From the NCBI GenBank assembly GCA_026180655.1, contig GCA_026180655.1_4341.1: DNA of 43,041 nt. One strand, 5' to 3'. Source of the DNA: a phage. The notes under the pieces are model-generated. The model had not been told where the DNA came from and made no database searches. It saw only the letters and a list, made by a program, of their open reading frames with translations. Below, piece after piece: positions 3,466 to 37,781 of the stretch. The translations under genes and the position numbers were made by a program. Each line of letters opens with the position of its first letter. Within the stretch, counting starts at the first letter, position 1.

Positions 3466-3992
3466 GTTGTCAACAGGCCGCGTAATAACGGTATCTCTTT
3501 AGGTGTCATCAGTATACCAGTGCTTCGTTGGTTCAGCATAGGTGTACCGACATCCGCAGAGAACTCGCCTTTCTCCTGGTTGATTGCCTGCAACTCGTAC
3601 ACGACCGGACCGTCGGCCGGATAAGACAGGTCGGTGCTGACGTAACGGCGGAAGACGAATTTCGGCAACTCGGTGTTACTCATCGGGATTTTATCCATCT
3701 CATCATCCAGTTGATTGAGAATATCCGGTAGGGTAAACGTTGTCGTCTGGTCCATATCACTGTTGTTAGCCGCCCCCGACGCCTCCATCGGGGTGGGTTC
3801 GAACGTGATTGTTTCGCCCGTCTCCAGTGTTGCCGTAAGTTCCTGTAGCCCGCGCACAAGATAATACGTCTTTGACAGCAACGGGTGGCTGATTTGCAAC
3901 GTGATGTAGTCCATCTCACCATCTTGGTTCGACGCCAGCTTCCGGCGGTAGGCTGCTTCTACTGATTCCTGGCTCATTGCATCGGGTCCCAA
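3462..3992 (-). CDS. Minor tail protein (lambda L-like), putative
   Basis: 176-aa ORF in canonical position after the M-like gene; overlapping stop/start coupling. Confidence 0.4.
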   Translation of the reverse strand: MGPDAMSQESVEAAYRRKLASNQDGEMDYITLQISHPLLSKTYYLVRGLQELTATLETGETITFEPTPMEASGAANNSDMDQTTTFTLPDILNQLDDEMDKIPMSNTELPKFVFRRYVSTDLSYPADGPVVYELQAINQEKGEFSADVGTPMLNQRSTGILMTPKEIPLLRGLLTT

Positions 3993-4474
3993 ATTCGTGG
4001 AAACGTTGATTGCGCGGTTCCGTAGGCTTTAAGGAAGCAATTAAGCCAGTCACCATAGCAACCAAACAAATCCGGCAGATTGTTAATCAGGCACCGGTTC
4101 TCAAGGTCCTGGAACGGTGACTTCTCGGCGGTTGCCGTGAAAGTAATCGTCCAGTTAATGCCGTCTTCTGTGGACTCCGCGATGGTGGACGTGATGGTTA
4201 CCTGATAATCCTCGATACCCATGCCGAAGTCGTGCGCCATCCAGAAACTTGACGCACCGCCGTCTACTTTTTCGAGGAACGACAGAAACGCCTGCCGCCC
4301 AAGCGCGGAGGTAATCAGGGTTACGCTTATCGGGAACACGTCGTAATACGTGTCGCGCCCCTGACGTACACCGCCGCCAGCTAAATCTACACTCCAGACG
4401 TTGTTGCGTCTGGTCATTGAGTAGCCTTTTGACACAATAGGCTTAAGGCTACGTGGGAAATATAAGTCGCTCAT
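3974..4474 (-). CDS. Minor/distal tail protein (lambda M-like), putative
   Basis: 166-aa ORF immediately downstream of the tape measure gene. Confidence 0.35.
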   Translation of the reverse strand: MSDLYFPRSLKPIVSKGYSMTRRNNVWSVDLAGGGVRQGRDTYYDVFPISVTLITSALGRQAFLSFLEKVDGGASSFWMAHDFGMGIEDYQVTITSTIAESTEDGINWTITFTATAEKSPFQDLENRCLINNLPDLFGCYGDWLNCFLKAYGTAQSTFPRIWDPMQ

Positions 4475-23823: not shown

Positions 23824-23905
23824 CTTCTCTACTCCGTTCTCGTTGTCGATGAAGTAAATATAGTAGGGTCGTAGGTAATAGTCAACTAGTCATTGCAGAA
23901 AATAG

Positions 23906-23938
23906 AAAAAAAAAATCCCGGCTGGGTCAGGGCCGGGA
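23906..23938 (-). terminator. Rho-independent terminator after lysis cassette
   Basis: TCCCGGC-N8-GCCGGGA hairpin (23916-23938) followed on the minus strand by a T10 run (A10 at 23906-23915 on plus). Confidence 0.65.
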
Positions 23939-24003
23939 TAAAACTGGAGAGCAGAGGGGTGGAACAGGAGGTGATTTAGGTATCGTCGGATTAGTCTTAG
24001 GTG

Positions 24004-26181: not shown

Positions 26182-26381
26182 TTCTCCTGTTTACCAAGTC
26201 GCTTAGGGGCGCAGATGGCGCGTACCTCTGAATCGTTGGGCTTGTCTCCCTGAAACAGGAAATGCGCGTTCTCTGCGGCGCGTGCCGCTGACTGGCACGC
26301 CCCCATCGAGTAAAACATTTCTGATGCCGCCAGTTGCATCTGGCCTGTGGACAGTACCCAGATAAATAAGATGCTGGTCAT
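26178..26381 (-). CDS. Small secreted/periplasmic protein, putative
   Basis: ATG 26381 overlapping upstream stop; signal-peptide-like N-terminus MTSILFIWVLSTGQMQLAAS; two Cys. Confidence 0.3.
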   Translation of the reverse strand: MTSILFIWVLSTGQMQLAASEMFYSMGACQSAARAAENAHFLFQGDKPNDSEVRAICAPKRLGKQEK

Positions 26382-26761
26382 TTCTTTAACCCGCATTTAA
26401 TGCACATACACGGAAACCCTACTCCGTAAAATTGCCATTCGTGCTCGCATTCTTTGCGCACCCCACATTTCTTGCACATCATCGACGCACCTTTATCGTA
26501 GAAGTACCAATCATGGTCGCACTCCCGCCCGTCTTCCTCACGGCAACCGGATTGCTCCTGTTTGCGGATAAGTTTGTACGCCTCTGCATCACCTGTAGCT
26601 TTAACCAACGCCAGATGCAACTCCTTAATCTGCGCCGAGGCGTCACGTAACCGATTCTTAAGTGACTGCACCTCATGCGCCAGGTCTTCGCACTGGTTGT
26701 TATTTACCTGCTGCCGTAACTGGTCAATCAGGTACTCGAATACTTCGTTTTTGTTACCCAT
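26378..26761 (-). CDS. Coiled-coil protein with duplicated C-terminal zinc-ribbon-like motif
   Basis: 127 aa; two repeats ECDHDW...MCKKCG and ECEHEW...MCIKCG. Confidence 0.35.
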   Translation of the reverse strand: MGNKNEVFEYLIDQLRQQVNNNQCEDLAHEVQSLKNRLRDASAQIKELHLALVKATGDAEAYKLIRKQEQSGCREEDGRECDHDWYFYDKGASMMCKKCGVRKECEHEWQFYGVGFPCMCIKCGLKK

Positions 26762-26864
26762 CTCTATCTCTCCTCTCGTTTATTCAACAGCGCCTGTTAT
26801 TGCTATAAGTCCTGTGTTACCGCGGCGGCGATACTTACGAATCACTGTTTTAAGTTCTTCGTTA

Positions 26865-27059
26865 CTACTCTGATGCCCGAAAGTGATAGGCAACTCTTCC
26901 CCCCCCCGACATCCCGAACTCAGTATCTGTTGGTTTATCCCGCCACCCCTGAATAAAACCGAAACGGTCACGGGTTATATACCGGTAGTTGTTAGGGAGT
27001 GGCAACTCCAGCCCCTCAAAATCAACGGTCACGGTGTAGCTTCTAAAATTCATAGTCAA
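26865..27059 (-). CDS. Hypothetical protein whose frame is joined to a second ORF by a G9 tract
   Basis: ATG at 27053; GGG codons span the homopolymer; downstream ORF 26780..26971 is in the frame reached by a 1-nt length change. Confidence 0.3.
   Translation of the reverse strand: MTMNFRSYTVTVDFEGLELPLPNNYRYITRDRFGFIQGWRDKPTDTEFGMSGGGRVAYHFRASE
26899..26907. repeat. Homopolymeric C9/G9 tract
   Basis: ttCCCCCCCCCgac on plus strand; lies inside overlapping ORFs 26865..27059 and 26780..26971. Confidence 0.9.
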
Positions 27060-27192
27060 TTACCCCGAACTCGTTAATGATTTGAGCCTTGTAGAAGTTG
27101 CCGTTTGAGGCCAGGTGATACGCCTGCACCATAGTCATCTCGCGATAGGTTGCTGCACTGTTTTCGAATTCCATAATCATCAAAGTAACCAT
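27043..27192 (-). CDS. Small hypothetical protein (49 aa)
   Basis: ATG 27192, 27 nt downstream of class A element copy 3; below ORF-track cutoff. Confidence 0.25.
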   Translation of the reverse strand: MVTLMIMEFENSAATYREMTMVQAYHLASNGNFYKAQIINEFGVIDYEF

Positions 27193-27254: not shown

Positions 27255-27554
27255 AAATTTTATTGGTGTTTTAGAGATAATTGCTCACTGCGAATCCAGT
27301 AGTATCTCGGACGTCTGGCCCACTGCCGCCAACGCATAACACGGTACTTGTTGCCGTCTGACTCAACAATAAGCCCGAATCGCTTTTCTCCGTTTCTACC
27401 GGTCCAGGTTACGATGTCGTTCAGTTTCGTTGTTGCATCTCCTGCAATAGTCGCTTCGATTGTTGCGTTTGGTGAAATAGAACAAAAATGAGAAAAATGA
27501 TACGCTGCTGTGTAGCAGCGTAAGTCACTCAGTAAAATCCCAAACTATTGAACA

Positions 27555-27749: not shown

Positions 27750-27928
27750 AAATCACCTCTGATTCGCGATAAACAACACACCAGCTTTCCACGCCCGCCA
27801 CGCGAGACGCGTCTTAACGTTCAGGTACTCTTTCTTCGAACCTTTGTTAACCGGCAGACCCTCGACGGTGGCCCACCGTTCAAATGCTTCTCTCATACCA
27901 ACCCCGCGCCACATAAACGGTTAAAATA

Positions 27929-35341: not shown

Positions 35342-35507
35342 TAAGGGTCAAAATAATGATTTTCTGTAAGCACGTTTATCGCTATATGAAACCGCTTCCG
35401 TGGTATGCAGACGAGTACCGGGCCGGGTACAGGCATGTGTAGATTTGCCGTGATTGTATGAAAATAAGATTAAGCGAAACGAAGGCACTGGATTTAAGGA
35501 AAAAGAA

Positions 35508-37781
35508 ATGAGCTACTTATACCTTGACTTTGAAACATTCTCTGAGGCCGATTTAAATAAAGTCGGGTCCTACGCTTACGCCGAACACCCGACTACCGAA
35601 GTGCTTATCTGTACCTATGCTTTTGATGACGAGCCTGTGCAGGTGTGGGATTGCACCGACGGCAGCGACATGCCGGGCGATTTGCACCGAGCGCTACGCC
35701 GCCTGGTTAAGCCAAATAGCCGTATCAAGATGGTGTGGCACAATGGCTCAATGTTCGATAGGCTCATCATGAAGCACTGCTGGGGCTTTGACATCCCTGT
35801 AAGTAACACCATTGATACGATGATTTGGGCGTTTCGTCACGCGTTGCCGGGTTCACTCGAGGCATTGTGCGAAGTGTTGGGCGTGTCCGCGGACAATGCG
35901 AAAGACAAACGCGGCAAGGCGCTGATTAAGCGTTTCTCTAAACCTACGCCGAAGAACTACAAAATCCGCCGCTATACCTCCGAAACGCACCCGGATGAGT
36001 GGGCGCTGTTCATCAAATACGCTGTGAGCGACATCACTGCGATGCGAGAAGTATTCCATAAGCTGCCGCGGTGGGGTAACTCGGAGTTCGAGGACCGCGT
36101 ACTGGAACTGGACCAATTAATCAATGACCGAGGCTTCTTTGTTGATACGGCTCTTGCTGAGGCGGCGGTAGCAGCAGTTGAACGCCACAAGCAAGAGCTA
36201 AAAAACGAGGCCCGCGCGAAATTCGGGGGAAAACTAACCGGCAAAGATTTCCTGCCAATCCTTCGGGAACTGGCACCGGCCTACAATATTTATAATGCGC
36301 AGAAAGCAACGCTCGAAAGTTTGTTAGAGGACGACGACTTGCCCGACGATGCGCGTACAATCATTGAGATGCGCCTCGGCGCGGCCTCCACGGCGTCAAC
36401 AAAATATAAACCGCTCCTGCTAGGACGGTCCAAAGACGGACGACGTCGTGGCTGCATCCAGTATGGCGGCGCGAAGCGCACTTTACGATTTGCGGGTAAA
36501 GGGTTTCAGCCACAGAACCTGTCGCGCGGGTATTACCACGATGACCCGACTAACGAGGAAAAGAAACTTGTACGCCAGCCGTGGGAGTCCGACGAAGACT
36601 GGAACCGCAGGCTTAACCCGCTATCGTTTGGTATCAATTTGCTTTTAAAGGGTCGGGCGCATCGTCGTTTCGATGTATCTAAACTAACGGCCTCGACCGT
36701 CCGCAGTTGCATCATCCCGGAAAAAGGCAATAAGTTGCTCGTTGCCGACTACTCAAACGTGGAAGGACGTGGGTTAGCCTGGACGGCGGGGGAGACGTCA
36801 GCCCTTGAGACGTTCCGCGCGGGGGTTGATATCTATTGTGCCACAGCTGGTAAGATGTTTGGCATGGACCCCATAGAACTGAAAGCCACCCGTAAAGACC
36901 TACGACAGGTCGGGAAATGTTGCGAGCTTGGCCTCGGCTACGAGGGGGGCGTAGGGGCTTTTATGACTATGGCTAAAACTTACGGGCTGGACCTCTTTAA
37001 AATGACGGAGACAATGCGAGGGACCTTTCCCGACCACATATGGGCCGCCACTGCCCGAGGTTATGAATGGGCGCGGATTCAGGAGGCTAAGCGACCCCCA
37101 AAACCAGGTAAAAAGGACGAACGGGCCTCTTACGTGTTGCCTAAGGAAGTGTGGCGCACCTGCGATGCTATCAAGCGCATGTGGCGGGAAGCCCACCCAG
37201 AAACAGTGAAATTCTGGAACGACCTTAAGGATTCGGTGATCGCCGCAATCAGAAATCCGGGACGAGAGTTTTGGGCGGGGGCCAGAGTCCGCCTTAACGG
37301 CGACAGAGCTATTCGCATCTGGCGTACTAAAGAGAAAGACAGACAGGGTAACTTTGTGCCTGGTTGGTGGTTGTGCGTGGAGCTGCCGTCGGGGCGCATC
37401 ATGTCCTACCCTGGTATAGGCTTAAGCGTCACTAAAGAGACTGACGAGGATGGGCGCGTAACAACTAACGTTCGCATTAAGTACCAGGGCGAAAATCAGA
37501 CCACCCGCCAGTGGACAACTTTGTATACCCACGGCGGAAAATTGTGTGAAAACATCATCCAGGCATTGTGCCGTGATTTACTGGTTAACGGACTCCTGAC
37601 GGTGGAAGCGGCGGGCTACCCAATTGTACTTCATGTGCATGACGAATGTGTCGCCGAAACACCAGACACACCGGAGTACACGGTTAAAGAGATGGGCGAC
37701 CTGCTATGCTCATTACCTGAATGGGCTGAAGGATTCCCACTAACATGGGCCGGGGAAGAGGTGTACCGTTATGTTAAGTAA
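35508..37781 (+). CDS. DNA polymerase, family A, with 3'-5' exonuclease domain
   Basis: ATG 35508 after AAGGAAAAAG RBS; exo motifs DFETFS, WHNGSMFD, YAVSD; pol motif A DYSNVEGR, motif B RKDLRQVGKCCELGLGYEGG, motif C HVHDE. Confidence 0.85.
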   Translation: MSYLYLDFETFSEADLNKVGSYAYAEHPTTEVLICTYAFDDEPVQVWDCTDGSDMPGDLHRALRRLVKPNSRIKMVWHNGSMFDRLIMKHCWGFDIPVSNTIDTMIWAFRHALPGSLEALCEVLGVSADNAKDKRGKALIKRFSKPTPKNYKIRRYTSETHPDEWALFIKYAVSDITAMREVFHKLPRWGNSEFEDRVLELDQLINDRGFFVDTALAEAAVAAVERHKQELKNEARAKFGGKLTGKDFLPILRELAPAYNIYNAQKATLESLLEDDDLPDDARTIIEMRLGAASTASTKYKPLLLGRSKDGRRRGCIQYGGAKRTLRFAGKGFQPQNLSRGYYHDDPTNEEKKLVRQPWESDEDWNRRLNPLSFGINLLLKGRAHRRFDVSKLTASTVRSCIIPEKGNKLLVADYSNVEGRGLAWTAGETSALETFRAGVDIYCATAGKMFGMDPIELKATRKDLRQVGKCCELGLGYEGGVGAFMTMAKTYGLDLFKMTETMRGTFPDHIWAATARGYEWARIQEAKRPPKPGKKDERASYVLPKEVWRTCDAIKRMWREAHPETVKFWNDLKDSVIAAIRNPGREFWAGARVRLNGDRAIRIWRTKEKDRQGNFVPGWWLCVELPSGRIMSYPGIGLSVTKETDEDGRVTTNVRIKYQGENQTTRQWTTLYTHGGKLCENIIQALCRDLLVNGLLTVEAAGYPIVLHVHDECVAETPDTPEYTVKEMGDLLCSLPEWAEGFPLTWAGEEVYRYVK

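Follow-up and report, generated by a model that had tools for sequence, protein, structure and literature searches.

The stretch of DNA analysed here, which we call the window, is 43,041 bp long and is about 90% identical to the Kagunavirus (Guernseyvirinae) siphophages of E. coli (Bas70-76, Shashou, Schulenburg and Ro145clw). Within a minus-strand block of small accessory genes, between the regulator/helicase-primase region and the lysis cassette, lies a gene that is divided between two reading frames at a run of nine G residues. The features of this locus, in the order of transcription, are as follows.

27501-27522, minus strand: terminator-like hairpin with a T-rich tail, upstream of the DUF7170 gene
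27043-27192, minus strand: DUF7170 gene (49 aa, phrog_4653), upstream of the disrupted gene, the start of which is overlapped by its 3' end by 11 nt
26780-27053, minus strand: whole locus, a frameshifted allele (273+1 nt) of a 90-aa gene of the phrog_1972 family
26865-27053, minus strand: frame A, the 5' part of the disrupted gene, from the ATG at 27053 to a TAG stop (62 aa)
26899-26907, minus strand: G9 homopolymer (C9 on the plus strand), an in-frame G8 (TCG GGG GGG and the G of GAA) plus one G
26780-26899, minus strand: frame B, the 3' part of the disrupted gene, codons 52-90 (EELPITFGHQSSNEELKTVIRKYRRRGNTGLIAITGAVE) and the stop
26378-26761, minus strand: phrog_6094 gene (127 aa), downstream, with its own strong ribosome-binding site, GAGAGGAGAG

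A pair made up of the DUF7170 gene and, overlapping it and directly downstream, the phrog_1972 gene is syntenic in all relatives. The hairpin at 27501-27522, which has an annotated terminator at the equivalent place in Shashou and Schulenburg, lies ahead of this pair and marks the start of the small transcription unit; the phrog_6094 gene starts 19 nt past the frame-B stop. An overlapping DUF7170/phrog_1972-like pair is also syntenic in phages of about 50 kb that belong to a different group (L058-L061, e.g., OQ359886.1 and MT478992.1), and in these phages the equivalent variable loop of the intact gene contains a run of A6.

Two reading frames of one gene

On the minus strand the sequence at the tract reads GAG TTC GGG ATG TCG GGG GGG GGA AGA GTT. 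The product of frame A is homologous to the family over residues 1-50 and then continues into a 12-aa out-of-frame tail (GRVAYHFRASE), so that its C-terminal end is ...FGMSGGGRVAYHFRASE; an alternative TTG start at 27059 would extend the product to 64 aa. ORF B, on the same strand, extends as an open frame from 26971 to 26780, one base 3' of the frame of ORF A, and its codons 52-90 are identical at the protein level to the family consensus. When the Bas72 orthologue was used as a tblastn query, the match to the window fell into two HSPs, in frames -2 and -3. Editing of the tract in silico restored a single reading frame at two lengths, G8 giving 90 aa and G11 giving 91 aa, while G6, G7, G9, G10 and G12 led to early termination; the junction peptide of the full-length product is GMSGGEELPITFGHQ. 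The repaired product matches phrog_1972, a family annotated as function unknown, over residues 1-73 (E=1e-13) in a match that crosses the frameshift junction, and its close homologues are 57-97% identical to it. Both the profile match and synteny with DUF7170 place the gene in this family.

A sequence-only reading of the window had proposed that the G9 run joins two small ORFs, that a G8 or G11 tract would fuse them and that a comparison with orthologues would reveal whether they encode one fused ORF. The edits described above agree with the second point, and the orthologues settle the other two: the two ORFs are the halves of one gene, as the approximately 25 orthologous loci that we examined (from Kagunavirus-like phages and metagenomes in GenBank, IMG/VR, ENA, NCBI and Logan) each contain a single uninterrupted ORF of about 90 aa, without the two-frame architecture and without the homopolymer. 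These loci include 20 distinct full-length alleles of 273 nt, which encode 90 aa, and two length variants, one of 89 aa with a single Gly and one of 92 aa with three Gly. The orthologue product has the form MNF.SYTVTVDFEGLELPLPNNYRYITRD..GFIQGWRNKPTDTEFGMSGGEELPITFGHQSSNEELKTVIRKYRRRGNTGLIAITGAVE, in which Ser-Gly-Gly-Glu is encoded by any of TCA, TCG, TCT and TCC, by GGA, GGT, GGC or GGG at each Gly and by GAA. No G run longer than 5 is found in any of the approximately 25 loci. Alignment with the orthologues places a difference of exactly one inserted G at 26899-26907, within the loop that varies most in length across the family (1-3 Gly, besides other indels). One allele, TCGGGTGGGG, present in two of the orthologous loci (L011 and L015), is a single T-to-G change short of G8.

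The protein is confidently predicted to be all-beta, and no solved structure is similar to it. According to this model, the 62-aa product would retain the first six of eight beta-strands and would lose the conserved C-terminal part, ELPITFGHQ...RKYRRR. Profile matches to large repeat proteins (fn3, Big_9) were judged to be spurious. In distant relatives, proteins of 172 and 176 aa (P0036 and P0043) have two copies of the family's module of about 85 aa in tandem.

Disruptions of the same gene near residues 44-56 have arisen independently in other lineages, as found by a profile search of the full library; in these members the N-terminal half alone matched, and detection was biased to N-terminal fragments. 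One contig (L043:1315-1600) is frameshifted at an A run, with A4 in place of the A6 of the intact relatives L058-L061 (CCCAAAAGG instead of CCAAAAAAGG). Another (L042:123-420) has a frameshift after GGFRS, just past the Gly-Gly position, and in two more (L044, 846-1064, and L045) other sequence takes the place of the C-terminal half from ...TTCGGGATGTC onward, with a terminator behind it. These repeated knock-outs would fit a dispensable gene.

Authenticity and age of the ninth G

The tract is the sole G/C run of at least 7 bases in the 43,041-bp window, in agreement with the earlier remark that runs of 9 G are rare elsewhere in it, and there is one other G/C run of at least 6 bases, a G6 at 36944. 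Runs of this kind are depleted in the window, with 5 overlapping matches to G/C runs of at least 6 bases observed (4 of them inside the tract) against 14.4 expected; in the related phage Bas72 there is just a single C6. At least one G9 occurred in 13 of 100 dinucleotide-preserving shuffles; thus, a G9 is not extreme given composition alone. The probability of the all-G arrangement of Ser-Gly-Gly-Glu, from the codon usage of the phage itself, is about 0.5%. A run of A10 at 23906, the only other long homopolymer, was considered as a second error-type tract and was ruled out, since it is the T-tail of an intrinsic terminator: A10 at 23906-23915 on the plus strand corresponds to a T10 that trails a GC-rich hairpin (CCCGGCCCTGACCCAGCCGGG; window 23880-23940), a minus-strand intrinsic terminator after the lysis cassette, and the contig L028, from a close relative, has T9AT at this place.

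It is possible that in the true genome the tract is G8 and the 90-aa gene intact, the ninth G being a homopolymer miscall of sequencing or assembly, and the sequence-only reading had named an indel error among its candidates. In favour of this, no G/C homopolymer in the genome is longer than the one that holds the frameshift, and it is in such runs that indel errors concentrate; in addition, the frame downstream is perfectly intact, and a public dataset contains the repaired protein in exact form. Look-ups with neighbouring window proteins in the Logan assemblies returned only two accessions, SRR14739106 and SRR22287332, and G9 is present in both of these independently built assemblies. The contig SRR22287332_918 (L017) matches the window at 100% identity over 1481 bp; it might be derived from the same data as the window, in which case only one confirmation would be truly independent. 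The other, SRR14739106_1809 (L020/L028), is a contig of 43.9 kb with 99.8% identity to the window, from which it differs by 11 substitutions and 1 indel in 6.1 kb, and is clearly the genome of a different strain. The recurrence of G9 in assemblies that are 100% and 99.8% identical to the window makes a chance sequencing error, or random miscall, unlikely. Nor are these assemblies noisy long-read consensus sequences, as their A6 and T6 runs agree with those of the window and only two other indels set them apart from it in about 7 kb. A genome-wide comparison points in the same direction: of 71 Bas72 proteins used as tblastn queries, 61 had a match in the window, and this gene alone was split between frames, the other partial matches being due to mosaic divergence or domain deletion with intact ORFs. 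An artefact would be expected to lack reproducibility in independent datasets and to be accompanied by other homopolymer frameshifts, and the locus shows neither of these signs. A systematic, platform-specific homopolymer miscall could be common to the assemblies, as the evidence for G9 is at the level of assemblies; nevertheless, we consider an artefact to be an unlikely explanation, and the suggestion of an indel error is disfavoured by the recurrence of G9 in a diverged strain and by the lack of any other frame-split gene.

Several other differences were observed during these comparisons. At 27906 (minus strand) the window has G4 and the SRR14739106 contig G5, in the spacer that immediately precedes the ATG of a 47-aa gene of the Phage_phiTE_015 family; this is a second difference in G-run length between the two strains and may alter the spacing of the ribosome-binding site. 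The same contig differs from the window in the terminator T-tract and, at 27429 (minus strand), has a C-to-T change that makes an ATG, so that a 56-aa ORF is called there, an equivalent start being absent from the window. Between the tape measure and minor tail proteins, a protein of 166 aa (window 3974-4474, minus strand) corresponds to one of 466 aa in Bas72 (Bas72_0028); about 900 bp are absent, probably an extra domain, and no frameshift is involved.

The age of the shift can be gauged from frame B. Between the window and individual orthologues there are up to 13 synonymous and 0 nonsynonymous differences in codons 52-90, and each of the three bases in these codons that only the window lineage has is synonymous when read in frame B. 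As the downstream differences are synonymous only, the shift is recent. These patterns suggest that frame B was under purifying selection until very recently or is still translated. In the SRR14739106 strain the gene has two further nonsynonymous changes, P20L and, in frame B, a Gly to Arg replacement. These two changes were considered as evidence of relaxed selection and discarded as such, as most other differences between this strain and the window are also nonsynonymous and 2 of about 13 changes in 273 bp is not significant.

The repaired form of the protein has a counterpart among known sequences. In a collection of 15 billion proteins, one entry (P0013), from a 13.3-kb Logan contig, has the exact repaired 90-aa sequence, a match at the protein level; if this contig carries TCGGGGGGGGAA on a near-identical backbone, then there would be a natural G8/G9 polymorphism. 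The truncated products of 62, 64 and 63 aa had no exact match in this collection, because the split gene was skipped by the gene callers in both Logan contigs, where the interval is empty. Scans for an allele of the gene with G8 or longer returned none from IMG/VR, 10 matches from the JGI/ENA metagenomes, all of them unrelated chance matches, and none from the GTDB genomes, where a looser pattern gave 11 chance matches.

Possible explanations: replication slippage, phase variation and recoding

Our results are best explained by a genuine, recent and heritable replication-slippage frameshift in a lineage-specific tract, which has switched off a dispensable accessory gene, and we regard this explanation as probable. 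The mutation appears to be heritable because it is common to two genomes that are 99.8% identical, and recent because the downstream frame is without decay. According to this explanation, synonymous changes in the lineage would have led to Ser-Gly-Gly-Glu being encoded as TCG GGG GGG GAA, creating a G8 run, and slipped-strand mispairing during DNA replication would then have added one G. Kagunaviruses encode their own DNA polymerase (window 35454-37781), and slippage by that enzyme is therefore the presumed cause. Translation from the ATG at 27053 would depart from the ancestral frame at codon 51 and reach a stop 12 codons later, yielding a product of 62 aa that is presumably non-functional, from a gene that is presumably dispensable. 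As a run of 8-9 G would be intrinsically hypermutable, we would anticipate that G9 to G8 revertants are frequent and hence that the tract may act as an accidental, reversible switch. The tract looks like the site of a real and potentially reversible mutation rather than a special decoding signal. There are similarities to the ordinary frameshift pseudogenes of phages, in which a single-base indel truncates a small non-essential gene, and here too other lineages have been disrupted independently; the differences from these pseudogenes are that the homopolymer is unusually long and easily reverted and that the remainder of the gene is without decay.

A more demanding explanation is that selection keeps the G tract as a switch, with G8 and G11 as the ON states and G9 and G10 as the OFF states, so that populations hedge on the 90-aa protein, for example by escaping a host defence that senses it. 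The G9 tract at 26899-26907 is a mononucleotide run of at least 6 bases within an ORF, in which a change of one base in either direction shifts the frame, and it falls under the published operational definition of a putative phage contingency locus (a run of at least 6 bases within an ORF; PMC12633550); these runs are over-represented in hypothetical or unclassified proteins (PMC12633550). An OFF allele (in the window and both Logan contigs) and an ON protein of identical sequence both exist, and the same gene is disrupted at an A run in another clade. However, the tract is found in none of the approximately 25 orthologous loci and is thus lineage-specific, lying one T-to-G change away from alleles such as that of L011 and L015, and so conservation of the repeat across related genomes, which is a sign of selection for mutability, is not seen. 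Furthermore, the three assemblies of the lineage all have the same OFF length and the ON state is known only as a protein, the scans of IMG/VR, metagenomes and genomes having yielded no allele of the gene with G8 or longer. An evolved contingency locus is, therefore, a doubtful interpretation. The same doubt attaches to the proposal that the G8/G9 tract is a genuine Kagunavirus contingency locus toggling a small early protein, to which low-level +1 decoding may add leakiness; if this were true, then some hosts would favour the OFF state (e.g., those with a defence sensing the protein) and the ON state would be regenerated from every burst. The term phase-variable, as applied in the sequence-only reading, may hold in the weak sense of a hypermutable tract in an accessory gene, but an evolved switch would be conserved, and this tract is not.

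Two published types of phage locus provide a yardstick for this interpretation. In Fletchervirus, polyG tracts are conserved in receptor-binding-protein genes, and the host/phage system uses polyG phase variation widely; in contrast, the tract described here is unconserved, lies in a small early or accessory gene and occurs in a genome that otherwise avoids G/C runs. As relayed in PMC10877375, Sorensen et al. (2021, Cell Rep 35:109214) described hypermutable polyG tracts in these Campylobacter phages, and the resemblance is of a poly-G run in phage coding sequence, the length of which sets whether full-length protein is produced. Gomez, Barrick and Waters (2025, bioRxiv, PMC12633550) demonstrated experimentally reversible homopolymer frameshifts in T2 agt and T4 rIIA; their cases involve A runs of 6-9, with measured reversion rates and trade-offs defined against defence systems, and in their survey such runs were in excess among genes of the hypothetical class. 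Our locus shares with T2 agt and T4 rIIA a mononucleotide run in a non-essential phage ORF, where slippage by one base in either direction turns the gene off or on, but differs in being a G9 confined to one lineage, in having the OFF state as the only one seen in DNA and in being known from sequence alone.

A further alternative is that the G9 template still yields the full-length protein, either through a +1 ribosomal frameshift, with the P-site tRNA-Gly moving from GGG to GGG, or through RNA polymerase dropping one G. The G run permits perfect +1 re-pairing and the shift is sterically possible; the next zero-frame codons, GGA (13% of Gly) and AGA (7% of Arg), are uncommon in the phage; and frame B is without decay. 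At the frameshift site of prfB there is a Shine-Dalgarno-like sequence, and the G run itself is Shine-Dalgarno-like. The absence of downstream decay would also fit ongoing expression of the full-length protein, but recency of the shift explains it equally well. Moreover, the shift site is in none of the approximately 25 orthologous loci, and no stable RNA structure follows the tract on its 3' side (z=-0.31 versus shuffles for the 121 nt around and downstream of it); the geometry, we infer, does not give good re-pairing at a pause on AGA. Programmed ribosomal frameshifting would entail conservation of the shift site and of two frames, and the orthologues have neither the site nor the two-frame architecture; programmed transcriptional slippage would entail a conserved A/T run of about 7-9 bases or more, and the run here is of G/C and unconserved. 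The two studies of slippage in bacteria on which we draw (PMC1088944, PMC6260861) cover A/T runs only, and even on such runs the RNA polymerase of E. coli was found to slip poorly. Overlapping frames, a slippery repeat and a rare zero-frame codon are features held in common with prfB-type +1 frameshifting and with dnaX and IS-element slippage (PMC1088944, PMC5009743), whereas our locus has an unconserved site, no stimulatory structure and G in place of A/T, and, unlike prfB-type sites, no stop or strongly hungry codon placed right for re-pairing. We consider recoding to be very unlikely, and the earlier suggestion of programmed slippage is disfavoured by the absence of the tract from every orthologue and of a stimulatory RNA structure. 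Neither programmed frameshifting nor an evolved switch is backed by any evidence, and the mutation is, on present evidence, a recent and ordinary case of slippage.

A probable OFF allele of a small phage protein

Annotation should treat the two small ORFs as a single frameshifted gene, or pseudogene, rather than as a pair of hypothetical proteins. Replication slippage in this tract would have produced, in nature, an OFF allele of the gene for a small and widespread phage protein of unknown function. Isogenic phages with G8 and G9 would constitute a ready pair of knock-out and revertant for probing the role of this protein. Finally, the locus adds one more candidate, in this case a G run in a siphophage, to the proposal that homopolymers may give phages a means of reversible bet-hedging.
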